In this document: piece after piece, positions 3,838 to 17,731 of the stretch
How positions within the stretch are numbered: position 1 is the stretch's first letter
Layout of the letters: each line of letters opens with the position of its first letter
Source: Candidatus Iainarchaeum sp.
Lineage (GTDB): Archaea > Iainarchaeota > Iainarchaeia > Iainarchaeales > CSSED10-239
DNA length: 32,000 bases
NCBI GenBank assembly: GCA_028700115.1
Contig: JAQVTI010000004.1
Coordinates: forward strand, 25,585-57,584
Direction: 5' to 3'
Translations under genes and position numbers: made by a program
Notes under the pieces: model-generated
The model's database searches: none
Told to the model about the DNA's origin: nothing
The model's input: the letters and a program-made list of their open reading frames with translations, nothing else

Positions 3838-3918
3838 AATTAATTCCTTTAAAAATTGTAAAATATAAAATATTTATAATCTATTATATTTATAATTGTT
3901 TTGTATATTTTTATAAAT

Positions 3919-4650
3919 ATGAATTTATTATATTTACCAATAATTATTATAACTATATTAATTTTAATAATAATTTCTATTCAAGATATTAAAAAAAGAG
4001 AAATTAATATATTTTATTTAATTTTTTTAGTGATTTTTAGTATTATTTATTTATGGGTTTTTATTTTTAAAAATGATTTAAATTTATGGTATTCTTATTT
4101 TTATCAATTAATAATTATTTTTGTATTTTTATTAATAATTTTTATATTAGGTAAACTAAGTAAATTTATATATATTGGAGAAGGAGATTTATATACTTTA
4201 TTTGCATTAAGTTTTACAAATATTTTCACTGAATTTTATATTTTAAGTATAATTATTTTATCTTTATTTATAACATTATTAATACCTTTATTTTTATTTA
4301 TATATAATTTATCTACATTTAATTTTCCAAAAAAACATGGTTTTTTTAAATCTATTATTTTAATGTTTTTAGGAATTAATATAAATATTAAAAAATTAAA
4401 TAACTTTTATTATTCTTTAGAAAAATTTTCCTTTAAAAATAATAAATTAAAATATATTATTTCTTTAAAACCAAATATATCTCCTGATAAAGAAATTAAA
4501 CAATTAAAAGCTTTTTCTAAAATACATAATATTAAGACAATATGGGTTTCTCCTTTAGTTCCTTTTGTAGTATCTATTACTTTAGCATATATTTTTATGT
4601 TTATTTTATCTTTTTATAATATTTTTAATATATTTATTTTCTTTTTATAG
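3919..4650 (+). CDS. archaeal prepilin/preflagellin peptidase (A24 family, FlaK/PibD-like)
   Basis: Polytopic membrane protein. The first catalytic Asp context is ISIQDIKKREI (D23 counted from the ATG at 3919) and the second is in YIGEGDLY (GxGD). An archaeal-type C-terminal extension is present. The ORF opens at 3901 (TTG) and the first ATG is at 3919. Confidence 0.75.
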   Translation: MNLLYLPIIIITILILIIISIQDIKKREINIFYLIFLVIFSIIYLWVFIFKNDLNLWYSYFYQLIIIFVFLLIIFILGKLSKFIYIGEGDLYTLFALSFTNIFTEFYILSIIILSLFITLLIPLFLFIYNLSTFNFPKKHGFFKSIILMFLGININIKKLNNFYYSLEKFSFKNNKLKYIISLKPNISPDKEIKQLKAFSKIHNIKTIWVSPLVPFVVSITLAYIFMFILSFYNIFNIFIFFL

Positions 4651-4767: not shown

Positions 4768-7599
4768 ATGGGTATTTTAGAAAAAATAGATATTATAGAT
4801 AAAAGAAATTCAATATCTACTAAAGATAATGTATCTAAATTATCTTTATTTGATAATATCTCAGAAAAGGATAGAAAAGTATATTCTATGGACTATACTA
4901 TAATTAAACCTTTATCAAAATTAGATGTTATTAATAAAAGTAATTTAGAAGTATCTTTAAAAAAAGATAATATTAATAATTATAATTTACCATTAGTTAT
5001 TCCTTCTGAAAAAATAATTTTTTCTAATAATTTACCATTAGTTATTCCTTCTGAAAAAATTGGTTTCTTAAATTCTAATTTTAAAGAATATATTAGTGTT
5101 TATAATAAATCTTTAAGTAAAAATAATTTTTTAAAAAAAAAAAATAAAAAAGAAAATTTAAATAATAATTATTTTATAACAGAAGAAGAACTTAAATCAA
5201 ATTTAAAATCTATAGCATATTTGTCTTTTTCTAAAGATAAATCTTCTATAAATAAGAAAACAAAATATCATTTTTCTAAAGATAATGTTGTTTCTGGAAT
5301 TAATTTTGATAAAAATAAAATTAAAGTAACAGAAGATATTGATGAGTTATTATCTGAATTAAATAAAAAGGCTTTAAATCTTGATAAAAAAGAAACTTTT
5401 TTAGAAGAATTTTCATTTTTAGAATCTAATCCAAAAGTTAATAAAATATCTTTAGATAATTATAAAATAAAACATCTTTATTCTAAAATAGACCAAATTT
5501 ATGAGAATATGGATAACTTAAATGTATTAGATCAAAGTTCTTTTTCTAAAAAAAATTTTATTAAAAATGATTTAAAAGATAAAAAAACAAATATAGAATC
5601 TAAAATAGGTATTTTTGAAGAAATTAAAGTCCCAGATATTTTTGTAATAAAAGATGATTCTAATAATTTAGAAGAAGTAATATCAAATGAATTTTCTAGT
5701 TATGAAAAGGATATTTCAAAAAAATCTACTATTCCTTTTTTTATATCTAAAGATAATGTATTAGATTTATCTGATGTTGTTTATAATTATATAAATAATT
5801 CTAAAAAAAATGCTTTTAATGATCCATCTAAAAAAATAAATATAAATTTAATATATAATAAAGCATTAAAAGATGATAATTATCTAAAAAATTTACTTTT
5901 AAATACAAAAAATACAACACAAATAAATAAAGAAAATGAAACTTTAAAAAATATTGAAAATAAATCAAAATTTTCTAAAAAGTCATTATTTAAAAATAAT
6001 ATTTTTAAAAAAGACAAATCTTTACAAGTTAATTTAAATGATTCTAATAAAAATTTAAATAATAAAAATTTAAATAATAAAAATTTAAATAATAAAAATA
6101 GATCTCAAAAATCAAATTATAAATTAAAGCCAAAATCAAATATAGATTATATTTTGCCAGTAAATGATTCTTCAAAAAATTTTGTAGTTAATAATTTTGA
6201 AAAGTCTATATCTCAAGATTTAATTTATTCTTTACCAATAAAAAATATAGATTTTTCTCAAAATAAAATTTATGAAAAATATTCTTTAGATGATTTTACT
6301 TTTGTAAATATTTATTTTGATAATTCTATAGGGCTTGTATATGATTTAATACAGCCAGAACTTAATAATAATCAACAAAAGTTATTTAATCAAATAAAAG
6401 ATATGTTTTATAATAATATAGATAAAGATTATTTTTATTTTAAAGGAGATTCTCATAAAATAAAAGAATATATTTCTAAAATATATGATGTTACTTTAAA
6501 TAAATTATCTTTTAAAATTAATTCTTTAGAAAGAAAACTTTTTTTAAAATTTATTCTTAGTGATTTTTCAGGTCTTGGTTTACTTTCAAGTTTATTAGAT
6601 GATTATAAAATTATTGAAATAAGTTGTAGTGGAGAAAATTCTTATTTATATGTGTATCATATAGAATATGGTCTTTTAAAAACAAATATTATATTTGAAG
6701 ATATTTTTAAATTAAATGAATTTGTTTTAAATCTTACAAAAAATATGGGGTTATATATTAGTTCTACAAATCCAATAATTGATGGATATCTCCCAAATGG
6801 TTATAAAGTAGAAGGAATTTATTCTACTGGAGATAGTAGTAGTAGAGGGTCTTCTTTTATTATTAAAAAATACTTGCAAAAATCAATAACTCCATGTGGT
6901 CTTGTAAATATAGGTGTTGGAATAAATGTTATTTTTGCATATTTTTGGCAAGCTATTGAAAATAAATATAAAATAATTATCACTGGAGAAGATGATAGTT
7001 TTATTATATATAATTCTATTGCTTTATTTTTCCCTCAAAAAAGAATTGTAAGTATACAAGATTATGATAAAATAATTTTACCACATAAAGAATGGGTTAA
7101 AAGAAAAGTATCTAAAAATGATGGGATTACAAAAAAAATATTAATTAATCAAACAAATTCTGAAAGACCAAATTATATAATACTTGATGTTTTTCAGAAA
7201 GATTTATTTAATTCTCAATGGTATAATATAGATTTATTTACTTGCCCTAAAAAAATACTTCCAGAAATAATAGAAAATCTAAATTCTGTTAATCAAAAAG
7301 CAATTATAATAGATATTAAGAGAATAAATTTTGGATATAGAGAATTAATAGAATTTAACACAGTTTTAGAAATTAATTCTAATCAAAAAAAAATATTTGA
7401 ATTTATTGTAAAAGATAAAGAATACCATGTAAATTTATTAAATTCTGATTTTAATATTATAGATATTAAAAATAAAGAGAAAGTTATAAATTGGTTATTA
7501 GAATCAAATATTTTTGATTATAAAGATTTTAATAATATTGTAAATGAATATTATATAGATAAAGATAATATTTTAAAAAAACTTGGAGTTGATAAATAA
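4768..7599 (+). CDS. FlaI/GspE-family secretion-ATPase homologue with degenerate nucleotide-binding motifs and a ~500-aa low-complexity N-terminal extension
   Basis: The C-terminal ~440 aa align with FlaI-type ATPases (IIEISCSG...YVYH..YG, NPIIDGYLPNG, SRGSSFIIKKY, AYFWQAIENKYKIIITG). The Walker A position reads GEDDSFIIY, Walker B reads RPNYIILDVFQKD, and the His box is absent. No GK[ST] occurs anywhere in the protein. Confidence 0.75.
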   Translation: MGILEKIDIIDKRNSISTKDNVSKLSLFDNISEKDRKVYSMDYTIIKPLSKLDVINKSNLEVSLKKDNINNYNLPLVIPSEKIIFSNNLPLVIPSEKIGFLNSNFKEYISVYNKSLSKNNFLKKKNKKENLNNNYFITEEELKSNLKSIAYLSFSKDKSSINKKTKYHFSKDNVVSGINFDKNKIKVTEDIDELLSELNKKALNLDKKETFLEEFSFLESNPKVNKISLDNYKIKHLYSKIDQIYENMDNLNVLDQSSFSKKNFIKNDLKDKKTNIESKIGIFEEIKVPDIFVIKDDSNNLEEVISNEFSSYEKDISKKSTIPFFISKDNVLDLSDVVYNYINNSKKNAFNDPSKKININLIYNKALKDDNYLKNLLLNTKNTTQINKENETLKNIENKSKFSKKSLFKNNIFKKDKSLQVNLNDSNKNLNNKNLNNKNLNNKNRSQKSNYKLKPKSNIDYILPVNDSSKNFVVNNFEKSISQDLIYSLPIKNIDFSQNKIYEKYSLDDFTFVNIYFDNSIGLVYDLIQPELNNNQQKLFNQIKDMFYNNIDKDYFYFKGDSHKIKEYISKIYDVTLNKLSFKINSLERKLFLKFILSDFSGLGLLSSLLDDYKIIEISCSGENSYLYVYHIEYGLLKTNIIFEDIFKLNEFVLNLTKNMGLYISSTNPIIDGYLPNGYKVEGIYSTGDSSSRGSSFIIKKYLQKSITPCGLVNIGVGINVIFAYFWQAIENKYKIIITGEDDSFIIYNSIALFFPQKRIVSIQDYDKIILPHKEWVKRKVSKNDGITKKILINQTNSERPNYIILDVFQKDLFNSQWYNIDLFTCPKKILPEIIENLNSVNQKAIIIDIKRINFGYRELIEFNTVLEINSNQKKIFEFIVKDKEYHVNLLNSDFNIIDIKNKEKVINWLLESNIFDYKDFNNIVNEYYIDKDNILKKLGVDK
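4983..5072 (+). repeat. 45-nt tandem duplication inside a CDS (NLPLVIPSEKI x2)
   Basis: The 33 nt taatttaccattagttattccttctgaaaaaat at 4983-5015 recur exactly at 5028-5060. Confidence 0.9.
6046..6099 (+). repeat. 15-nt tandem repeat aataaaaatttaaat, about 3.6 copies (NKNLN repeats) inside a CDS
   Basis: Exact copies at 6046-6060, 6061-6075 and 6076-6090, plus a partial copy to 6099. Confidence 0.9.
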
Positions 7600-8447
7600 T
7601 GTTTGGTAAAATATTATCACATATTTCTTTATTTTTATTTAAAGATATATTTATTAAATTACAAGATAATTTTAAAAATTTTTCAAAAGTTCTAAATTAT
7701 ATAAAAGTAAATGAAAATGCAGTATCTTATCTTTCAAATATTTTATTTATTTCTTTATTTTTAGTTATTGTTTTAGAGTTTATCTTTATATTTTTAATGG
7801 TTAAATTAAATATATATTTTAATATATTTAGTTTTTTTATAACTATATTTATATCATTTACAATTGGTTTAATGATTTTCTTAGTACTTTTTAAATTCCC
7901 ATATTATCTTTTAGATATAAAAAAAACAGAACTTGATATTGAATTTGAAAATAGTCTTAAACATTTATCTGTAATTTGTGATAATAAATTAAGTGTTTTA
8001 GATGTTTTAAGAATAATTATATCTATTGAAGATAATTATTTAATTTCTGAAAATACAAAAAAAATAATTACTAATTCTATAGATGATTTAAATTTAAAAA
8101 ATTCATTATTATATATTTCTGAAAATACCTTTTCAGAAATTGAAAAATTTTTTTTAATAAAATTAGTAGATGTTTTAGATAAGAAAGATAATTTAGAAGA
8201 TGTTGTTTTAAATTATTTAAATGAAATAGAATCTTCTAGAAAAGAATTAAGTGAACAAAGAAAAAGTAAAATAAATATTTTATTTCAAGTTAATATATTT
8301 ATTTTTTTAATTATAATAATATTATTAATTATAGTTTTTATAGTTCCAATAACTAATCAAACTATAAGACAATTATTAGGTTTTATTGCAATAATTCTTC
8401 CAATTATTGAATTTATTTTGATTTTAATTCTTTATAATAAAAATTAA
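7599..8447 (+). CDS. half-size FlaJ/TadB/TadC-like (T2SS-F type) pilus platform membrane protein
   Basis: N-terminal TM helices, a ~110-aa cytoplasmic helical domain (LKHLSVICDNKLSVLDVLRII...) and C-terminal TM helices. The start overlaps the upstream stop (TAATG at 7597-7601), which suggests coupling to the ATPase-like gene. Confidence 0.55.
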   Translation: MFGKILSHISLFLFKDIFIKLQDNFKNFSKVLNYIKVNENAVSYLSNILFISLFLVIVLEFIFIFLMVKLNIYFNIFSFFITIFISFTIGLMIFLVLFKFPYYLLDIKKTELDIEFENSLKHLSVICDNKLSVLDVLRIIISIEDNYLISENTKKIITNSIDDLNLKNSLLYISENTFSEIEKFFLIKLVDVLDKKDNLEDVVLNYLNEIESSRKELSEQRKSKINILFQVNIFIFLIIIILLIIVFIVPITNQTIRQLLGFIAIILPIIEFILILILYNKN

Positions 8448-8475: not shown

Positions 8476-9612
8476 ATGAGAATTTTTATGGATAAAAAGA
8501 AATTTTTGAAAATAAATACTTTTATTTTAAAAAATGAATATCAATTATTAACTTTATCTGGATTTCTATCTGGGCTTTTAATTTTATTTATTACAAATAA
8601 ATTTTTTTTTAAAAGTGAACTTTATTATTTATTATTCTTTTTTGGAATTATAGTTTCTTTTTTTGGGTTTGTTTTAGAATATTTTATTAAAAAATATAAA
8701 ACTAAATCTTTAGAAAAAGTATTTAGTTATTTTTTATCTGATTTATCTAGAGATTATAAAAAAACAAAAAATCTATCATTATCTTTAATTAATATTTCTA
8801 ATTCAAATGTTTATAAGGGGATAGATAATGATATTAAAAAAATATCTAATAGAGTATCTTGGGGGGATAGTTTTGAAAATTCTTTAAAATGTTTGAATTT
8901 TTCTTTAGATAGTGATATTTTAAATCATACTTTAATATTATTTAATAATTTAAAAAATACTTCACTTTCTTTAGATCAGATTTTTTTAAAAATTTCAAAA
9001 GATATAAATCTCTTTAGAGAAGATAAACAAAAAAAAAGATATTTTAGTCATTTATTTAATTTATCTATTGTGTTTTTTATAGTTTTTATATTTGTTTTAC
9101 TTTATCTAGATATATTAATTGGAAGTAATTTTTTATGGTATAATTATTTAGATTCTATGAATAGAATATTTTTTGATAACTTTATATTATATATTGCAAT
9201 TGTTTTATCTTTTTTTACAGCTTTTGTTATAAGTACTATAAAAGATAATAAATTTGGGGGTTATCTGAAATATATTGGAATTTTTTTTATAATTATTATA
9301 ATTTTATTTCAAATTGTAATTCCAAAACCAGAAGCTCAAGAAGTTTTAATTAGTACTATTAATTATATGAATCTTGAAGATATAGATTATTTTTATTTAG
9401 AAAATATTATATCTATACAATCTTTAAGTTCCAAATATATTTCAGAAAATACAACTGTAGATAGAGTTTATTTTAAACCTTTAGATGTAAATTTGTGTAA
9501 AGATACTTCTTGTTTAGAATATACTATTTTAATTAAAGATGCTTCTTTTTTTAATTTTGAATTAATTAAAGTAGACAAAAATATAATTATTTTATATGAA
9601 TATAATTATTGA
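8476..9612 (+). CDS. second half-size FlaJ/TadB/TadC-like platform membrane protein with a C-terminal extracytoplasmic extension
   Basis: Same TM, cytoplasmic-domain, TM layout as the upstream gene, plus a ~85-aa Cys-containing tail. An alternative ATG lies at 8488. Confidence 0.5.
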   Translation: MRIFMDKKKFLKINTFILKNEYQLLTLSGFLSGLLILFITNKFFFKSELYYLLFFFGIIVSFFGFVLEYFIKKYKTKSLEKVFSYFLSDLSRDYKKTKNLSLSLINISNSNVYKGIDNDIKKISNRVSWGDSFENSLKCLNFSLDSDILNHTLILFNNLKNTSLSLDQIFLKISKDINLFREDKQKKRYFSHLFNLSIVFFIVFIFVLLYLDILIGSNFLWYNYLDSMNRIFFDNFILYIAIVLSFFTAFVISTIKDNKFGGYLKYIGIFFIIIIILFQIVIPKPEAQEVLISTINYMNLEDIDYFYLENIISIQSLSSKYISENTTVDRVYFKPLDVNLCKDTSCLEYTILIKDASFFNFELIKVDKNIIILYEYNY

Positions 9613-9649: not shown

Positions 9650-9997
9650 ATGATTTATAAAATTGAAAAAAACAAAATTATTTTTAAAAAAATTAAACTC
9701 GCATTAAATCTTGGACAAATGAGAGGCTTAATGTTTTACCCAAGATCTAAATTTAATTTTGCATTAATTTTTGATAGAAGTTATGAAGACAAAATTAATT
9801 CTTCTCTTCATATGTTTTTTGTATTTTTTCCAATTGATGTTTTATTTTTAAATTCTAATAAAGAAATAGTTGATATTAAATTTAATTTTAGACCTTTTAG
9901 ATTTTATATTCCTAAAGAAAAAGCAAGATATGTTATTGAACTTCCTTGTTTAAAAAAAAATAAGCAATTAAAAATTAAACAAAAAGTTAATTGGTGA
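9650..9997 (+). CDS. DUF192 family protein
   Basis: MRGLMFYPR...LHMFFVFFPIDVLFLNSNKEIVDI...ARYVIELP matches the DUF192 pattern (GLM, Mxxxxx[PI]xD[IV]xF, YVLE). Confidence 0.6.
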   Translation: MIYKIEKNKIIFKKIKLALNLGQMRGLMFYPRSKFNFALIFDRSYEDKINSSLHMFFVFFPIDVLFLNSNKEIVDIKFNFRPFRFYIPKEKARYVIELPCLKKNKQLKIKQKVNW

Positions 9998-10087
9998 TTT
10001 TATAAGTTTATATAAATCTATTCCATTTTAACATTTTTTAAAATTTTTAAACTTTGCAAAGACTTTTAAATATTTTATATAATATTT

Positions 10088-10114: not shown

Positions 10115-13100
10115 ATGATATATAATTTTAATAAAAAAATATCAATATCCCCATTAATTGCAGTAATTTTAATAATTTTAGTTGCATCAGTTTTAACTGG
10201 TGCAATTTTATCTTGGTCTAAATCCTCTATTAAAAATTCACTTTCAGATTCTTCTCAAATTTCTAATCAAAGTTTAAATATTTTAGAATGTAAGGATATT
10301 TATCTAAAAGTAGAGTCATTTACATATTATTCTGATTTAAATTATTTTAATTTACTTGTAACAAACACATCTAGTTATAAATTACAAAACCCACAAATAA
10401 CTATTTTAGGGATTGATAGTTTGGGAGAAGATATTAGACTTACAGGTAATTTTAATTCATCTTTAGATAAAGGAGAAACTAAAGTTTTTTCTACAAACTC
10501 AGTTGATTTTTATTTTTCTTTTCAAACACATGAAGTTTCTGATCTAAATTCAGATAATATTTCAGAAATTACATTTGTTTTTCAAACATGCCCTACAAAT
10601 ATTTTATATTTTAAAGATTGGGATATTATAGGTGCGATTGTAAGTGGTGAAACAACTCCAGTTGCTTTATTTGTTTTAGGTTTACATTATCTTTTTAATG
10701 AAGGAAGTGGAACTATTGTTAATGATTTATCTGATAATTCTTTAGATGGAGATTTAAATAGTGGTTTTTGGCAAACAAATGAAGTTGATATTAATTTTTT
10801 AAAATTAGATAATAGTTATAGGGATTCTTTAATAGTTGATGCAAATTTAAATGGTCTAGAAGATGATTCTGGATATAGTTATACTTTTACAAATTCAGGA
10901 TCTGTTGCTTCAATTAACCAAAATGGAGAGGCTATGGCTAGAGATTTTGATGGGGTTAGTGATTATTTAATAATTAATTCTCCAATTAAAGAAGATAAAT
11001 ATCCATTAACAGTTTCATTTTGGATAAATGCAGATTCATGGACTACAAATTATTATGCAGCAGGAGATTTATATTATTCTTGGCTTATAAATAAAAGGGA
11101 TAATGGTACAGATAGATGTTGGCAGTTTATGTTGTCTGATGGATATCCAAGAGTTGATATGTTTAATGATGCAGGAGATGGAATTGATGGAGATTTACAA
11201 TCTAATCAAATTATAACTTTAGAAGAATGGGTGCATATTCTTTTAACAACTGGAGGTCAAACAGGAGATTCTGCAAAAATATATCAAGATGGTGAATTAG
11301 TTTCTGAAGTAACTTTAACAGGAGATAGGCATTTAAGTTCAAGAGAAGTTGTAATTGGTGCTGCTGGTTGGTCTTTTGATTTATTTAATTTTGATGGAGA
11401 TATTTCTGATGTTAAGATTTGGAATAAAGAGCTTAGTGAAAGTGAAGTTAAAAGTGTGTATAATGAACAAAAATCAGATTATGTTACTTCAAATGATTCT
11501 AATAGTTTAGATTTGTCTGATGGGTTTACAATAAATGCATGGGTTAATACAAACAATTTAGATGAACAAACAATTGCTTCAAAAGAAAGTTTTAATACAA
11601 GTTTGTCTTCTGCAGATTTTGAAACATTTGATTTACAAACAATAAGTTCTAGTTATACTGGTTATTTTGATGAATATTTCGATGGGAGATATGTTTATTT
11701 TTTACCTTATCATAATGGATCTGTATATCATGATAAATTTTTTAGATATGATACTACAAAAGATTTTATTTCTTCTTCAAGTTATGAATTTTTTGATTTA
11801 AGTACAGTTAATTCAAAATGTACTGGATTTACAGGAATTTCTTCTGATGGTGATTATTTATATTTAAGTACCTATTCAGGAAGTATTAATGGATGTTTTT
11901 TAAAATATGATTTAAATTCTTCTTTTACATCTTCATCTAGTTATGAATTTATGGATTTAACTACTTTAGATTCTAGTTATAAAGGTTTATTTAGTAGTTT
12001 ATTTGATGGAAGATATGTTTATATGTTAGTATATAATAATGGTAGTTATACTGGTAAGATCATAAGATATGATACTTTATCTGATTTTACATCTTCATCT
12101 AGTTATATTGTTTTTGATTTATCTACAATTAATTCTTTGTATAAAGGATATGCTTCAATGATTTTTGATAATAGATATATTTATTTTATACCTTTTCATA
12201 ATGGAGTTAGACAGGGTAATTTTTTAAGGTATGATACATATGAATCTTTTACAGATTCATCAAGTTATGAATATTTTAATTTAGAAACTATAAATTCTAA
12301 TTATAAAGGATTTATTGGAGGTGTTTTTGATGGAACTTATGTTTATCTTGTGCCTTATACAAATGGTGATTATTTTTCAAGTGTTGTTAGATATGATACT
12401 TCTTTAGATTTTGATAATTCTAAAAGTTATTCTGTATTTGAATTAACTAATTTAAATTCAAATTATAAAGGATATAGAAGTGCTGTTTTTGATGGGAGAT
12501 ATGTTTATTTTGTGCCTCATAATAATGGATCCTATCATGGAAATTTAATAAAATATGATATTTCTAAAGATTTTTTAGAAAATTCTAGTTATTCTGTATT
12601 TGATACTTCTAGTTTAAATTCTGGTTTTAAAGGTTTTTTTGGTGGGCTTTATGATGGTAAATATTTATATTTGCAAGGTTATAGTGATCGATCTACTGGA
12701 ATTGTTGGAAGATATGATACTAGAGAAAATAATAATTTTAATTTTAAAATAAATTCATCTTCTCAAGATGGTATTAGTCAATCTAAACAAGGAATTAAAT
12801 TTAATTTAGATACAAATGAAGGTTATTATCAATTGTTTGATAATAATTATACTGAAACTGGTTGGCATATGTATTCTGCAAGTTATGATAATAATTTAAT
12901 GAAAATATATTATGATGGTAATCTTTCAAAAAGTAAACAAGTAAGTGGAGCTATAACTAGTACCATTTTAGATGATTTAATAATTGGAAAAACAAATACT
13001 GGTTTTTATGGACTTGATGGAAATATTTCTGATTTTAAAATATATGAAGAAGCTTTATCTGATGAAAATATTTCTGATTTATATGATCAAAATATAAATG

Positions 13101-13765
13101 ATTATCCTTCTAGTCCTTTTGGTTCACATCCAACTTTAGAAGAAGATTTAGTTTCTTATTATTCATTTGATGGAAACGCAGAAGATTCAAAAGGAACAAA
13201 TGATGGAATTTCTAATAGTGTTAATTATTCAACTATGAATGGAATAATAAATAGTGGTGCTGAATTTAATTCTAACAATGATAGTTATATTCAATATTCT
13301 TCAATAATAACTCCTAAAGGTGAAAAAAGTATTTCTATTTGGTTAAAAACTTCTCAAACTAGTTGGTGTAGTATTTTTAAAAATAATAGTGATGGTACTC
13401 AAAGTTATGGTGTTTCAATATATGGTTCTGGACATGTTGAACTTTCTCAAGCATCTTCAATTAAAGTTTTAGAAATTTCTCCTGTAGGTGATTTAAGAGA
13501 TGGAAATTGGCATCATTTAGTGTTTACTTGGGATGGAACTACTAATTCAGATACAGTTAAATTATATATTGATGGAATTTTAAATAATCAAAATACTGCA
13601 AATAATACTGAAACAGTAACTCCTTCATATAATTTAATTATAGGTAGATATACTAATGTTTATGATTATGATGGAGATATAGATGAAGTTGGTATTTGGG
13701 AAAGAGCTTTAACTCAAAAAGAAGTAATGGATATTTACAATCTTGGAAATGGGCTTTCTAGATAA
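10115..13765 (+). CDS. modular type IV pilin-like surface protein: class III signal peptide and pilin head, three LamG-like domains, 7 x ~54-aa repeat block
   Basis: N-terminus NKKIS/ISPLIAVILIILVASVLTGAILSW (archaeal Pilin_N type). Three LamG-type endings: FDGDISDVKIWNKELSESEV, LDGNISDFKIYEEALSDENI and YDGDIDEVGIWERALTQKEV. Confidence 0.75.
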   Translation: MIYNFNKKISISPLIAVILIILVASVLTGAILSWSKSSIKNSLSDSSQISNQSLNILECKDIYLKVESFTYYSDLNYFNLLVTNTSSYKLQNPQITILGIDSLGEDIRLTGNFNSSLDKGETKVFSTNSVDFYFSFQTHEVSDLNSDNISEITFVFQTCPTNILYFKDWDIIGAIVSGETTPVALFVLGLHYLFNEGSGTIVNDLSDNSLDGDLNSGFWQTNEVDINFLKLDNSYRDSLIVDANLNGLEDDSGYSYTFTNSGSVASINQNGEAMARDFDGVSDYLIINSPIKEDKYPLTVSFWINADSWTTNYYAAGDLYYSWLINKRDNGTDRCWQFMLSDGYPRVDMFNDAGDGIDGDLQSNQIITLEEWVHILLTTGGQTGDSAKIYQDGELVSEVTLTGDRHLSSREVVIGAAGWSFDLFNFDGDISDVKIWNKELSESEVKSVYNEQKSDYVTSNDSNSLDLSDGFTINAWVNTNNLDEQTIASKESFNTSLSSADFETFDLQTISSSYTGYFDEYFDGRYVYFLPYHNGSVYHDKFFRYDTTKDFISSSSYEFFDLSTVNSKCTGFTGISSDGDYLYLSTYSGSINGCFLKYDLNSSFTSSSSYEFMDLTTLDSSYKGLFSSLFDGRYVYMLVYNNGSYTGKIIRYDTLSDFTSSSSYIVFDLSTINSLYKGYASMIFDNRYIYFIPFHNGVRQGNFLRYDTYESFTDSSSYEYFNLETINSNYKGFIGGVFDGTYVYLVPYTNGDYFSSVVRYDTSLDFDNSKSYSVFELTNLNSNYKGYRSAVFDGRYVYFVPHNNGSYHGNLIKYDISKDFLENSSYSVFDTSSLNSGFKGFFGGLYDGKYLYLQGYSDRSTGIVGRYDTRENNNFNFKINSSSQDGISQSKQGIKFNLDTNEGYYQLFDNNYTETGWHMYSASYDNNLMKIYYDGNLSKSKQVSGAITSTILDDLIIGKTNTGFYGLDGNISDFKIYEEALSDENISDLYDQNINDYPSSPFGSHPTLEEDLVSYYSFDGNAEDSKGTNDGISNSVNYSTMNGIINSGAEFNSNNDSYIQYSSIITPKGEKSISIWLKTSQTSWCSIFKNNSDGTQSYGVSIYGSGHVELSQASSIKVLEISPVGDLRDGNWHHLVFTWDGTTNSDTVKLYIDGILNNQNTANNTETVTPSYNLIIGRYTNVYDYDGDIDEVGIWERALTQKEVMDIYNLGNGLSR
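11618..12727 (+). repeat. seven tandem ~54-aa (~162-nt) coding repeats, possibly a beta-propeller
   Basis: Units begin at aa 502, 557, 610, 664, 718, 772 and 826. Consensus: Y.xFDLxTxNSxYKGxxxxxFDGRYVYxVPxxNGxxxGxxxRYDTxxDFxxSSS. Confidence 0.8.
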
Positions 13766-13805: not shown

Positions 13806-15041
13806 ATGTTATATAAAGTTAAATCAAAAAAAGCAATTTCTCCTGTAATTGCAATTATTTTTATAGTTCTAATTGCAGCGATTTTAACTGGAGCTATGCT
13901 TTCTTGGTCTAAATCTTCAACTAAAGATAAATTAGAAATAACTTCTAAAGAATCAAGACAAATAGTTGATGATTTAACTTGTAGTGATATAGAATATTCA
14001 ATTGAAGATGTTGTAATTGATACTAGAACAAAAGATTTTAATTTTTTATTTTTTAATAATTCAACAATTAAACTTTATAACCCAAAGATAACTATTTTAG
14101 GAAAAAGTTTATCTGGTGAAGACTTAAGATTTGTTGGAGAGTTTAATTCTTCTATAGATAAAATGGAAAGTAAAACTTTTTCAACAACTTCTGATTTTAA
14201 TTATTCTTATCAATCTCATGAAACTGATCAATTAGATGTTGATTCAATTGAAGAAATTACAATTGTTTTTAATACATGTCCAAATAAAATATTTTTAATA
14301 GATACATATGAAACAATTACTTCTGCAGAACCATCTCCTTATTTTAGCGGGCATTCAACTTTAGATAATAATATAGTTGCATATTATTCATTTGATGGAA
14401 ATGCAGAAGATCAAGTTGGAACTTGTGATGGAACAGTTAGTGGTGCATTAAATAGTTCTAGTTATGGTTTAATTAATCAAGGTTATAGATTTGATGGGGA
14501 TTGGGATTATATTAATTTAGGAAAAAATAATGCAATTGAATCTTTATTTGATCCAGGAAATAGTTTTTCTATATCTTTTTGGATGTATTCTTTAGAGAAT
14601 GTAACTTCTAACTGGAGATGGGTTTTAAGTAAAGCATATACTTCTCATACACCTCCATATTATCAATTTGATTTTAAATTAAATAGTATTGGATCTATGT
14701 CTTCTGTACTTTATAATGATTCTGTATCTATTTATTTAGGAGATTCTGATTCTAGTTATGAAGAATATAATAATTGGAATTATGTTGTAATTACAGTTGA
14801 TTTAACTAATAATATATATAATATATATATTAATAATAATTTATTAGTAACAGATACTACTCCTGAAGGAACTTATACAAATTATGATACTGAACTTGCA
14901 ATTGGTAGAAATATTAAATTTAATAATAATTCAGTTTATGATTTTTATGGTTATATTGACGAAGTTGGAATTTGGGAAAGAGAATTAACCCAAGATGAAG
15001 TTTCTGCATTATATAACTCTGGAAATGGTCTTTCTAGATAA
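13806..15041 (+). CDS. modular type IV pilin-like surface protein: class III signal peptide and pilin head plus one LamG-like domain
   Basis: KSKKA/ISPVIAIIFIVLIAAILTGAMLSW; the head module is paralogous to genes 1 and 3. LamG features are YYSFDGNAED, FSISFWMY and YGYIDEVGIWERELTQDEV. Confidence 0.75.
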   Translation: MLYKVKSKKAISPVIAIIFIVLIAAILTGAMLSWSKSSTKDKLEITSKESRQIVDDLTCSDIEYSIEDVVIDTRTKDFNFLFFNNSTIKLYNPKITILGKSLSGEDLRFVGEFNSSIDKMESKTFSTTSDFNYSYQSHETDQLDVDSIEEITIVFNTCPNKIFLIDTYETITSAEPSPYFSGHSTLDNNIVAYYSFDGNAEDQVGTCDGTVSGALNSSSYGLINQGYRFDGDWDYINLGKNNAIESLFDPGNSFSISFWMYSLENVTSNWRWVLSKAYTSHTPPYYQFDFKLNSIGSMSSVLYNDSVSIYLGDSDSSYEEYNNWNYVVITVDLTNNIYNIYINNNLLVTDTTPEGTYTNYDTELAIGRNIKFNNNSVYDFYGYIDEVGIWERELTQDEVSALYNSGNGLSR

Positions 15042-15048
15042 TGATATA

Positions 15049-15058
15049 TTTTATAAAT
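15049..15058 (+). promoter_or_regulatory. TATA-box-like element ttttataaat upstream of pilin gene 3
   Basis: Same conserved cassette as at 13773-13782. Its centre is about 26 nt before the ATG at 15080. Confidence 0.5.
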
Positions 15059-15079
15059 GTTTTCTTTTATTTTATTATT

Positions 15080-17731
15080 ATGTTATGTAAAGTTAAATCA
15101 AAAAAAGCAATTTCTCCAATAATAGCAGTAATTTTAATTATTTTAATTGCATCTGTTTTAACTGGAGCTATTTTATCTTGGTCTAAATCTTCAACTAAAG
15201 AAAATATGGCTTTAACCTCTAAGGAGTCAAGAGAAATTGTAAGTGATTTAACTTGTAATGATTTAGTTTATTATATTGATTCTATAGATTTTAGATATGC
15301 AACAAATGATTTTACTTTTTTAATAGTAAATAATTCTTCACAAAAACTTTTTTTTCCAAAAATAACTGTTTTTGGAAAAACTTTATCTGGGGAAGATATT
15401 AAATGGGTTGGAGAGTTTGAAGATTATATAGATAAAGCACAAACTAAATCTTTTTTAACATCTTCTGAGAATTTCACATATACTTCTCAAACACATACAA
15501 CAAATATAGATGAAAATAGTTTAAGTGTAAATCTTGTTTTTCAAACATGTCCTAATAAAATTATAACAATTAATAGTTATGATGTTATTTATCCTGTTTG
15601 TGGAGATTCTTTATGTGAAGGAGATGAAACTTCTGAAAATTGTTATTCAGATTGTGGAAGTTGTGGGGATAGTGTTTGTTCTGCTCCTGATGAAAATTTA
15701 GATACTTGTGCAATTGATTGTGCGGTTTGTGGAGATGGCATTTGTTCTTCAAGTGTAGAAAACACAGCTTCATGTTTACAAGATTGTCCTCCTAATTATT
15801 TTTCTTCAACTTGGAATACAGCAACTACTGGATATGGTTCAAGTGCTTCTAATCAAATAAATCTTCCTTTAGTTTCAAGTGGAACTTATGATTTTAATGT
15901 AAATTGGGGAGATGGTTCAGTTTCACAGATTACTTCATATAATGATCCTGATAAAACACATACTTATGCTTCTTCAGGGATTTATGATGTGAATATGTGG
16001 GGAACTATTGAAGGTATTTCTTTTGAATATTCTAGTGATAGGTATAAATTAACTGAAATTTCTCAATGGGGAGATTTTAGTCCTAAAAATAGTAAATTTA
16101 GTTATTGTGAAAATTTAGATATTACAGCAACTGATATTTTGGATTTAACTGGAGTTACAAGATTAATTTGTTTTTTTTGTAATTGTTCAAGTTTAACTCA
16201 AATTCCAAATATAGACCAATGGGATGTTTCAAATATTACAGATATGTCTAGTTTGTTTGCTGGTACTTCTTTTAATCAAGATCTTTCTTCTTGGGATGTT
16301 TCAAATGTTACTGATATGTATGGGATGTTTTCAAATACAAATAATTTTAATCAACCTTTAAATAGCTGGGATGTTTCTAGTGTAACTGATATGGGATCTT
16401 TATTTTTAAATGCAGATGCTTTTAATCAACCTTTAAATAACTGGGATGTTTCTAATGTTACTAATATTAATAATATGTTTAATAATGCAGATGCTTTTAA
16501 TCAACCTTTAAATAATTGGGATACATCAAATGTAACTACACTATATGGAACTTTTGCTGAAACTTTAGCATTTAACCAATCTTTAAATGATTGGAATACA
16601 TCTAAAGTAACAACTTTTGAAAAAATGTTTTATGGAAGTGAATCTTTTAATGGTGCAGTTAATAATTGGGATACATCTAATGTGACTACCATGAATGGTA
16701 TGTTTCAAAATGCTTATGTTTTTAATCAACCTTTAAATGATTGGAATGTTTCAAATGTAACTAATATGGGTTATATGTTTAAAGAAGCATATGCTTTTAA
16801 TCAAGATTTAGATCAATGGGATATTTCTAGTTTAAGTAATATTTTTCAAATGTTTTCAGGAGCAATTAATTTTGATGGAAATATTTCAACATGGGATGTT
16901 TCAAATATAACTTATCTTGGTGATTTATTTAATTGTAATATATATAGTCAACATCTTGGTACTTTTATTACAGGTTGTCATTTTAATCAAGATATTTCTT
17001 CTTGGGATGTTTCAAATGTTACTAGTATGTCTGGTTTGTTTGAAAATCAAGTAGATTTTAATCAACCTTTAAATGATTGGGATGTTTCAAATGTAACTAA
17101 TTTGAGTGGTATGTTTAATGGTGCTAAATCTTTTAATCAACCTTTAAATGATTGGAATACTTCTAAAGTAACTAATATTAGACATATTTTTTATAATGCA
17201 AATTCATTTAATCAAGATTTAAATAATTGGGATACTTCAAATGTTTCAGATATGTCTTATGTGTTTATGATGGCTAATTTATTTAATGGAGATGTATCTA
17301 CATGGGATACTTCAAATGTAACTTCAATGGATTGGATGTTTTATTCTGCTGATTCATTTAATCAACCTTTAAATAATTGGGATACTTCTAAAGTTACTGA
17401 AATGGATTGGATGTTTTATTCTGCAGATAATTTTAATCAACCTTTAAATAACTGGGATGTTTCAAATGTAACTGATATGAGTTTTATGTTTAATGATGCT
17501 AAATCTTTTAATCAAGATATAGGTGATTGGAATACTTCTAAGGTTACTAATATGAATAGTATGTTTTATTCTTTAGATTATTTTAATCAAGATCTTTCTT
17601 CTTGGGATATTTCTAAAGTGACTTCTAGTTTTACTGCCTTTTTTTATGGAACTAGTGTGTCAGCAGCAAACTGTCAAGCAATGGCAACTGCTTGGGGAAA
17701 AACTTGTGCAGATTTAGGATGTACTTGTTAG
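15080..17731 (+). CDS. modular type IV pilin-like surface protein: class III signal peptide and pilin head, 3 CGDxxC Cys-rich repeats, DUF285/BspA-like repeat array
   Basis: MLCKVKSKKA/ISPIIAVILIILIASVLTGAILSW. The ORF opens at 15041, but the conserved promoter and 5' cassette shared with gene 2 place the start at 15080. Downstream are a VNWGDGS...HTY segment and then repeated FNQPLNNWDVSNVTxMxxMF units. Confidence 0.75.
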   Translation: MLCKVKSKKAISPIIAVILIILIASVLTGAILSWSKSSTKENMALTSKESREIVSDLTCNDLVYYIDSIDFRYATNDFTFLIVNNSSQKLFFPKITVFGKTLSGEDIKWVGEFEDYIDKAQTKSFLTSSENFTYTSQTHTTNIDENSLSVNLVFQTCPNKIITINSYDVIYPVCGDSLCEGDETSENCYSDCGSCGDSVCSAPDENLDTCAIDCAVCGDGICSSSVENTASCLQDCPPNYFSSTWNTATTGYGSSASNQINLPLVSSGTYDFNVNWGDGSVSQITSYNDPDKTHTYASSGIYDVNMWGTIEGISFEYSSDRYKLTEISQWGDFSPKNSKFSYCENLDITATDILDLTGVTRLICFFCNCSSLTQIPNIDQWDVSNITDMSSLFAGTSFNQDLSSWDVSNVTDMYGMFSNTNNFNQPLNSWDVSSVTDMGSLFLNADAFNQPLNNWDVSNVTNINNMFNNADAFNQPLNNWDTSNVTTLYGTFAETLAFNQSLNDWNTSKVTTFEKMFYGSESFNGAVNNWDTSNVTTMNGMFQNAYVFNQPLNDWNVSNVTNMGYMFKEAYAFNQDLDQWDISSLSNIFQMFSGAINFDGNISTWDVSNITYLGDLFNCNIYSQHLGTFITGCHFNQDISSWDVSNVTSMSGLFENQVDFNQPLNDWDVSNVTNLSGMFNGAKSFNQPLNDWNTSKVTNIRHIFYNANSFNQDLNNWDTSNVSDMSYVFMMANLFNGDVSTWDTSNVTSMDWMFYSADSFNQPLNNWDTSKVTEMDWMFYSADNFNQPLNNWDVSNVTDMSFMFNDAKSFNQDIGDWNTSKVTNMNSMFYSLDYFNQDLSSWDISKVTSSFTAFFYGTSVSAANCQAMATAWGKTCADLGCTC
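15599..15793 (+). repeat. three tandem ~21-22-aa Cys-rich coding repeats (CGDxxC-x7-8-C-x3-C)
   Basis: CGDSLCEGDETSENCYSDC, CGDSVCSAPDENLDTCAIDC and CGDGICSSSVENTASCLQDC. Confidence 0.8.
16201..17645 (+). repeat. about 19 tandem ~25-aa (~75-nt) DUF285-type coding repeats (bacterial surface protein 26-residue repeat)
   Basis: 19 occurrences of W[DN][VTI]S[NKS] spaced 24-25 aa apart, with one longer unit. Most carry an N-[VI]-T sequon. Confidence 0.85.

Follow-up and report, generated by a model that had tools for sequence, protein, structure and literature searches.

Surface proteins in which a compact domain sits in a loop of another domain, forming one rigid unit with it, are well known, for example the integrin alpha chains, whose I-domain is inserted in a beta-propeller, or the Vibrio cholerae sialidase, which carries an inserted lectin domain. 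Here we analyzed a protein in which the polarity of this arrangement is reversed, as a large propeller is the guest and a lectin-type jelly-roll of 150 aa, a LamG domain, is the host. The protein, P0001 (1216 aa), is encoded by the open reading frame (ORF) 10115..13765 (+ strand) of a 32,000-nucleotide stretch of DNA from Candidatus Iainarchaeum sp. (assembly GCA_028700115.1, contig JAQVTI010000004.1, positions 25,585 to 57,584), which we call the window and to which all nucleotide coordinates refer. It contains, in this order, a type-IV-pilin-like head, LamG1, LamG2 split by the propeller, and LamG3.

Large non-core proteins of lectin or propeller type are also found in type IV pilus (T4P) loci. 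Besides the PilY1/PilC tip adhesins of bacteria, large DUF2341 (ConA-like) proteins in archaeal T4P loci have been put forward as tip adhesins of the PilY1 kind (Makarova et al. 2016, PMC4858521), and LamG proteins are expanded in DPANN archaea, some of them being tied to T4P loci (Golyshina et al. 2017, PMC5498576). P0001 is likewise a large lectin-type/propeller protein in a pilus-type locus. It differs, however, in lacking DUF2341 and in having its cargo fused directly to a pilin-like head instead of forming a separate protein. PilC/PilY1 was absent among the Pfam matches and the top 50 Foldseek matches in the PDB, and no sequence relation was detected; the likeness to PilY1 would be one of working mode, not of membership.

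Both folds are known and nesting is known; what is new is an unmodelled, Kelch-like seven-bladed family together with a conserved guest-in-LamG architecture, and this is neither a new fold nor a new mechanism. A non-exhaustive literature search found no description of the inserted propeller/LamG module.

A seven-bladed propeller interrupts a LamG domain of P0001

LamG2 is encoded in two pieces. The N-terminal piece (aa 455-492, DYVTSNDSNSLDLSDGFTINAWVNTNNLDEQTIASKES; 11477..11590, + strand) provides two core jelly-roll strands and corresponds to positions 5-38 of the profile PF13385 (Laminin_G_3, of the concanavalin-A-like lectin/glucanase superfamily), while the C-terminal piece (aa 872-990; 12728..13084, + strand) provides ten jelly-roll strands followed by a helix and corresponds to positions 54-151. 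The propeller insert (aa 503-871; 11621..12727, + strand) lies between them, as indicated by a hidden Markov model (HMM) of the blade, by 7 x 4 predicted strands and by matches to propeller folds. On the native sequence, aa 455-488 matched profile positions 5-38 (E 2.8e-4, 21.5 bits) and aa 886-987 matched positions 54-151 (E 4.3e-14, 53.4 bits). When aa 493-871 were excised in silico, residues 7-162 of the joined 175 aa gave one continuous PF13385 match that covered positions 3-151 of 151 and reached 79.9 bits (E 2.8e-22) against a cutoff of 27.6 bits, passing the whole-domain gathering score. Without the insert, the host therefore matches Laminin_G_3 from one end to the other; it differs from that family in that a 380-aa domain interrupts it from profile position ~38 to ~54, and in lacking two N-terminal strands that most homologues have. 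The C-terminal piece alone resembles, by profile, LamG/LNS/pentraxin-type domains of PDB chains (4qvs, pappalysin, neurexin).

The structure was predicted with AlphaFold2 for aa 447-1000, using an alignment of 36 homologues. The model (mean pLDDT 91.1, pTM 0.92) contains 28 strands in 7 groups of 4, framed by 2-3 jelly-roll strands before and by ten strands and a helix after. The strands preceding the propeller are a short one at model residues 11-13 and two long ones at residues 25-33 and 39-47; their pLDDT is 83-93, and 87-93 for the two long strands. The N-terminal piece (aa 455-492) would pair in three dimensions with the strands of the C-terminal piece. The linkers to the propeller span just 8 residues on entry and 1 on exit; such tight connections would hold the two domains in fixed geometry and fit a rigid unit. 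The ~380-aa propeller would sit in one beta-hairpin of LamG, between the strands ending in '...IASKES' and starting with 'FNFKINS'; as a closed propeller joins its own two ends, it could be accommodated in such a loop and leave the host fold intact. In Foldseek searches of the PDB and of BFVD, no entry corresponded to the whole nested unit (TMq <= 0.44).

The junction is also conserved in other proteins. Among 53 split homologues, drawn from many phyla of bacteria and several of archaea, the N-terminal piece ends at position 106-107 of its HMM in 47, the C-terminal piece starts at position 1-4 in 48, and exactly seven blades lie between the LamG pieces in 48 out of 53. Judged by these HMM positions, the insertion site is the same everywhere among the split proteins.

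These results bear on the first-pass annotation, which had been made from the letters alone and proposed seven tandem repeats of ~54 aa, possibly a seven-bladed propeller, inserted inside a LamG domain at 11498-13084. That interval corresponds exactly to aa 462-990 of the ORF, the LamG fragments are located where they had been placed, and the repeats were confirmed, by a repeat HMM and by shuffling, as seven units of 53-54 aa within aa 503-871. The proposed nesting is now supported by the excision, the AlphaFold2 model, the conserved junction and the shortness of the N-terminal piece.

The two other LamG domains of P0001 are unsplit Laminin_G_3 domains: LamG1 (aa 279-446; 10949..11452, + strand) matches PF13385 over positions 1-151 (E 1.7e-19), and LamG3 (aa 1055-1204; 13277..13726, + strand) matches it with E 1.3e-23. 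With our own HMMs for the N-piece, blade and C-piece, the architecture of the protein reads NC-N[7]C-NC. On native sequences, Pfam shows just positions ~54-151 of Laminin_G_3, the C-terminal two-thirds, in the split members, so that automated annotation displays a truncated LamG and misses the nesting. The recurrence of a 380-aa guest in the same hairpin of a 150-aa jelly-roll makes this a useful case for the study of domain-insertion evolution and for domain-parsing software.

The propeller is probably a distinct family remotely related to Kelch

The seven blades cover aa 503-555, 558-608, 612-662, 666-716, 720-769, 773-822 and 827-871, encoded on the + strand at 11621-11779, 11786-11938, 11948-12100, 12110-12262, 12272-12421, 12431-12580 and 12593-12727, respectively. 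Pairwise identity between the units is 46% on average (range 32-61%). To avoid circularity, the blade HMM was trained solely on units from proteins other than P0001; all seven units of P0001 scored against it with an independent E-value (iE) between 2.6e-16 and 5.7e-27, and 200 shufflings of the repeat region gave no match at iE <= 0.01. The blade consensus across the family is Y-s-x-F-D...G-F-x-G-a-v-F-D-G-R-Y-V-Y-F-v-P...G-x-v-l-R-Y-D-T-x-x-x-F, and the family is marked by seven blades and by the signature FDGRYxYFxP ... RYDT ... F. The polar residues D, G, R, Y, D and T are conserved alike in every blade, a pattern compatible with binding at several sites (multivalency) or with contacts of a purely structural kind.

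We then considered whether the repeat belongs to a named family. The repeat block (381 aa between the LamG pieces) had no Pfam match even at E <= 10, a search in which none of the WD40, NHL, YVTN, PQQ, FG-GAP and RCC1 repeat models matched, and no NCBIfam match at E <= 1. The Kelch models (PF01344 and its clan) did not match the repeat either, and the Kelch matches of homologues fall in separate regions. Sequence searches of the PDB with the repeat and with a profile of the module matched structures with the LamG C-terminal piece and not with the propeller. Moreover, the near-pure blade proteins P0003, P0004, P0005, P0007 and P0009 had no precomputed Pfam domain in a table that includes very recent accessions.

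Remote comparisons point to Kelch. Foldseek against the PDB returned generic propellers, the best compact ones being Kelch propellers (SAKe6, Plasmodium K13, Keap1) with TM 0.65-0.69 and 11-16% identity; WD40 structures appeared solely as generic fold matches, and BFVD gave the same picture of generic propellers. In addition, we used hhalign to compare the propeller alignment with one of bona fide Kelch domains, which came from other parts of the family proteins, and obtained 87.6% probability (E 3.5e-6) with the motifs in register, GavFDGRYVYFvP falling on ggkiYviGG and vlRYDT..SW on vevYDp..W. The controls, a reversed Kelch alignment and the LamG C-piece, gave 0.2% each. Like the Kelch propellers of Keap1, Plasmodium K13 and the designed SAKe, the new family has four-stranded blades of ~50 residues. 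It differs in that the GG doublet is replaced by F-x-P, in its extra invariant FDGR and RYDT motifs and in its seven blades, the matched Kelch propellers being mostly six-bladed. The earlier view of the repeat as an unnamed family therefore stands as far as Pfam models of Kelch, YVTN and NHL are concerned and has to be modified by a remote kinship with Kelch; the repeat is probably a distinct, unmodelled family and a remote relative of the Kelch type. As a propeller family without model or specific name, it is a target for family curation and structure determination.

The nested module recurs in bacteria and archaea

An exhaustive HMMER search with the repeat block alone revealed a large family: of the clusters formed at 50% identity, 1923 matched at E <= 1e-3, and 872 still did so at E <= 1e-30. 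The search with aa 455-1000 returned 219 proteins, many covering 94-99% of the query. We classified 233 family proteins: 114 carry one free group of 7 blades, about 50 show the N-[7 blades]-C arrangement, and others have blade numbers in multiples of 7, up to ~50 blades. Members of the propeller family are thus found on their own, as tandem arrays, or within LamG, there at a single conserved site. When 185,579 species were scanned, each through one genome, 456 loci coding for relatives emerged. The near-full-length module was present in bacteria (Nitrospirae, Latescibacterota, Lentisphaeria, Planctomycetota, Gemmatimonadota, Verrucomicrobia and CPR) and in archaea (Thermoplasmata, Aenigmatarchaeota, Micrarchaeota, Nanoarchaeia and Undinarchaeota).

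The partner domains found in homologues are all of surface or secreted types (fn3, PKD, TIG, Calx-beta, dockerin, T9SS tail, Peptidase_S8/S74, PG_binding), the N-termini of homologues carry signal peptides or membrane anchors, and DUF2341 accompanies the split LamG in many bacterial homologues. The nested form also exists in short secreted proteins of 670-760 aa that have no fibre parts.

We also asked whether the nesting arose once or several times. A FastTree phylogeny of 273 propeller domains scatters the 'split' state, which requires 19 changes, compared with ~41 for shuffled labels, and places the query propeller among free, fibre-type propellers. In the tree of LamG C-pieces, the split C-piece of P0001 lies closest to other split ones, rather than to LamG1 or LamG3 of the same protein. 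Both trees are long-branched, the unsplit outgroups number only 12, and the split and unsplit classes were set by our own HMMs. An orthologue with an empty site, that is, an unsplit LamG2, was absent from the 21 other genomes of the taxonomic family, where only the pilin head is conserved.

Several variants of the architecture were observed. Giant proteins of 2000-4400 aa (P0122-P0129, P0002-P0006) contain 2-7 consecutive propellers, from 14 to ~50 blades, joined by linkers of ~100 aa with 'NNGGFGGG' and 'NVGIGT' motifs; several of them end in the Peptidase_S74 intramolecular-chaperone domain, as fibre proteins do. In P0063, P0069, P0071, P0086, P0096 and P0107, a Kelch domain (identified by Pfam Kelch_1 and related models, and by phmmer at E 1e-15 to 1e-31 against the Kelch region of P0054) lies between blades 2 and 3 of the split-LamG propeller, and P0063 has Kelch inserts at two places of the propeller. 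In these proteins the LamG insert measures 663-946 aa, compared with ~380 normally, a possible three-level nesting of Kelch within propeller within LamG.

Proposed function of the nested unit

We consider it likely that aa 455-990 form one rigid LamG/propeller unit, displayed on a pilus or on the cell surface, that binds an external ligand, this being the best explanation of the data as a whole. In our model, the unit would be the middle cargo behind the type-IV-pilin-like head, in a gene that directly follows those for a prepilin peptidase, an ATPase-like protein and platform proteins. P0001 would most likely be displayed on the pilus or at its tip, or be otherwise anchored in the membrane at the surface, and the unit would there bind an external ligand, for instance a glycan, or a polymer on the surface of a host or substrate. 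What the data show is the repeat array, the interruption of LamG2, the conservation of the insertion site, the class of fold, the size of the family and the setting of the gene; what we infer is the pairing of the two LamG2 pieces, display at the surface, and binding in place of catalysis. The extracellular partner domains, the signal peptides and two bacterial loci, together with the proposals on archaeal tip adhesins (PMC4858521) and DPANN LamG proteins (PMC5498576), support a surface-displayed binding or adhesion unit.

The evidence from bacterial neighbourhoods comes from these two loci only. In Latescibacterota (L051:2566-7668), the gene coding for DUF2341 and the split LamG follows a two-component system and is itself followed by genes for an OMP barrel and a TonB-dependent receptor. 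In Lentisphaeria (L058:1086-6026), it is located between a GHL10-like hydrolase gene and a ceramidase-like gene. The two loci suggest substrate capture.

Several points weigh against this proposal. At the level of the fold, the contact between the two LamG2 pieces is a predicted one, deduced from pLDDT, pTM and the profile match. LamG2 also lacks ~50 N-terminal residues (two strands, 'LVxWWxFD...GxAxxFDG') present in most homologues: it starts at position 58 of the 107-position N-piece HMM, while 34 of the 53 homologues start within the first ten positions. The jelly-roll may therefore be incomplete or be completed by something else. At the level of display, P0001 itself has no Pilin_N match in Pfam (a weak one, E 0.13, was found on a neighbouring paralogue only), and its predicted prepilin cleavage region reads KKIS-ISPLIA, in contrast to KKA-ISP[VI]IA in both paralogues, so pilin-type processing of P0001 is putative. 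Finally, the presence of the same polar residues in all blades would suit structural contacts no less than the putative binding.

As to the missing start of LamG2, it could be the scar of a fusion or deletion, or a tolerated truncation. In the stretch 11453-11500 (aa 447-462), we noticed that LamG1 passes directly into the 'DYVTS' strand of LamG2.

Other explanations were weighed against the ligand-binding unit. The closest propellers by sequence (48-52% identity) belong to long, fibre-like proteins that carry GIGT-type repeats, the Peptidase_S74 chaperone domain typical of fibres terminates several family members, and tandem arrays of 2-7 propellers exist, as would suit a mainly architectural module, a rigid bead or spacer that lengthens a surface fibre or sheath and has no specific ligand. 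However, LamG domains and Kelch-type propellers are classic binding scaffolds, and the nested form is also found in the short secreted proteins devoid of fibre parts, one of which belongs to a locus with a TonB-dependent receptor; we thus regard a mainly architectural role as unlikely.

An enzymatic role appears improbable as well. Here the propeller would act on sugars, as a Kelch-type galactose oxidase, a NanM mutarotase, a sialidase-like enzyme or a lyase, with LamG as its carbohydrate-binding module. The remote Kelch-type relation is compatible with this, trans-sialidases, which combine a propeller and a lectin domain, were among the weaker Foldseek matches, and one bacterial homologue adjoins the GHL10-like gene. 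Nonetheless, no enzyme family matched in Pfam or NCBIfam, conservation falls on identical residues in each of the seven blades and family-wide, which is typical of structural or multivalent-binding repeats and not of a single active site, and the family includes arrays of up to ~50 blades in fibre-like proteins. Finally, although Pfam does report the two pieces of LamG2 as separate stretches on the native sequence, hardly any chance is left to two separate, partly degraded LamG domains flanking an independent propeller with no domain split. The N-terminal piece has 38 aa and covers profile 5-38 only, the C-terminal piece covering 54-151 only; by its length it cannot make up a whole LamG domain, which excludes that reading. 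Moreover, the joined pieces give a single gap-free match (profile 3-151) that outscores both, 53 proteins from different phyla share one and the same junction, and the N-terminal piece is modelled with confidence within a model of high pTM.

Returning to the surface-displayed binding unit, one can tentatively go further. It is possible, though less likely than not to hold in full, that the nested unit represents a ligand-recognition module of prokaryotic surfaces, so far undescribed, ancient and spread by horizontal transfer, and that it here acts as the specificity-determining tip of a type IV pilus for host-cell recognition. Host recognition by DPANN symbionts is an open question, and a pilin-headed protein with a putative, lineage-specific binding module offers a testable candidate.

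The pilin-like head and the pilus locus

The head of P0001 (aa 1-175; 10115..10639, + strand) consists of a basic N-terminus, the hydrophobic helix 'ISPLIAVILIILVA' and a globular part of ~130 aa. It shares 49% and 43% identity with the heads of two paralogues encoded downstream on the + strand, namely paralogue 1 (13806-15041), a pilin-like head with LamG, and paralogue 2 (15041-17731), a pilin-like head with a DUF285 repeat array. The basic N-terminus and the hydrophobic helix ISP[LVI]IA are common to the three proteins. Comparing positions 10133-10160 with 13827-13850 and 15098-15125, we observed a two-residue insertion at the expected class III prepilin-peptidase site of P0001. The head was also found in 18 of the 21 other genomes of the taxonomic family, with 26-37% identity and mostly in short ORFs of ~150-200 aa, and nothing else of the protein was found there.

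Upstream, and on the + strand, the window encodes an A24 prepilin peptidase with an archaeal C-terminal domain (3901-4650), a PilB/FlaI-like protein (4768-7599), two T2SSF platform proteins (7599-8447 and 8476-9612) and a DUF192 protein (9650-9997). The assembly measures 0.96 Mb, with an estimated completeness of 89%, and the genome encodes an archaeal-type L10e.

The propeller is present in one copy in this genome, and a search of 40 relatives with a completeness of 59-99%, 6 from the same genus, 15 from the same family and 19 from the same order, found none. The propeller cargo is therefore lineage-specific. By its distribution among these genomes, it was probably acquired horizontally; as the best propeller homologues have only 36-52% identity, no donor can be named. 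The G+C content of the window ranges from 14 to 27%. Between positions 10001 and 18000 it rises to 25-27% over the three pilin-headed cargo genes, compared with 14-18% in most of the window, a rise that fits either a foreign source of the cargo domains or the abundance of Gly and Asp in them.

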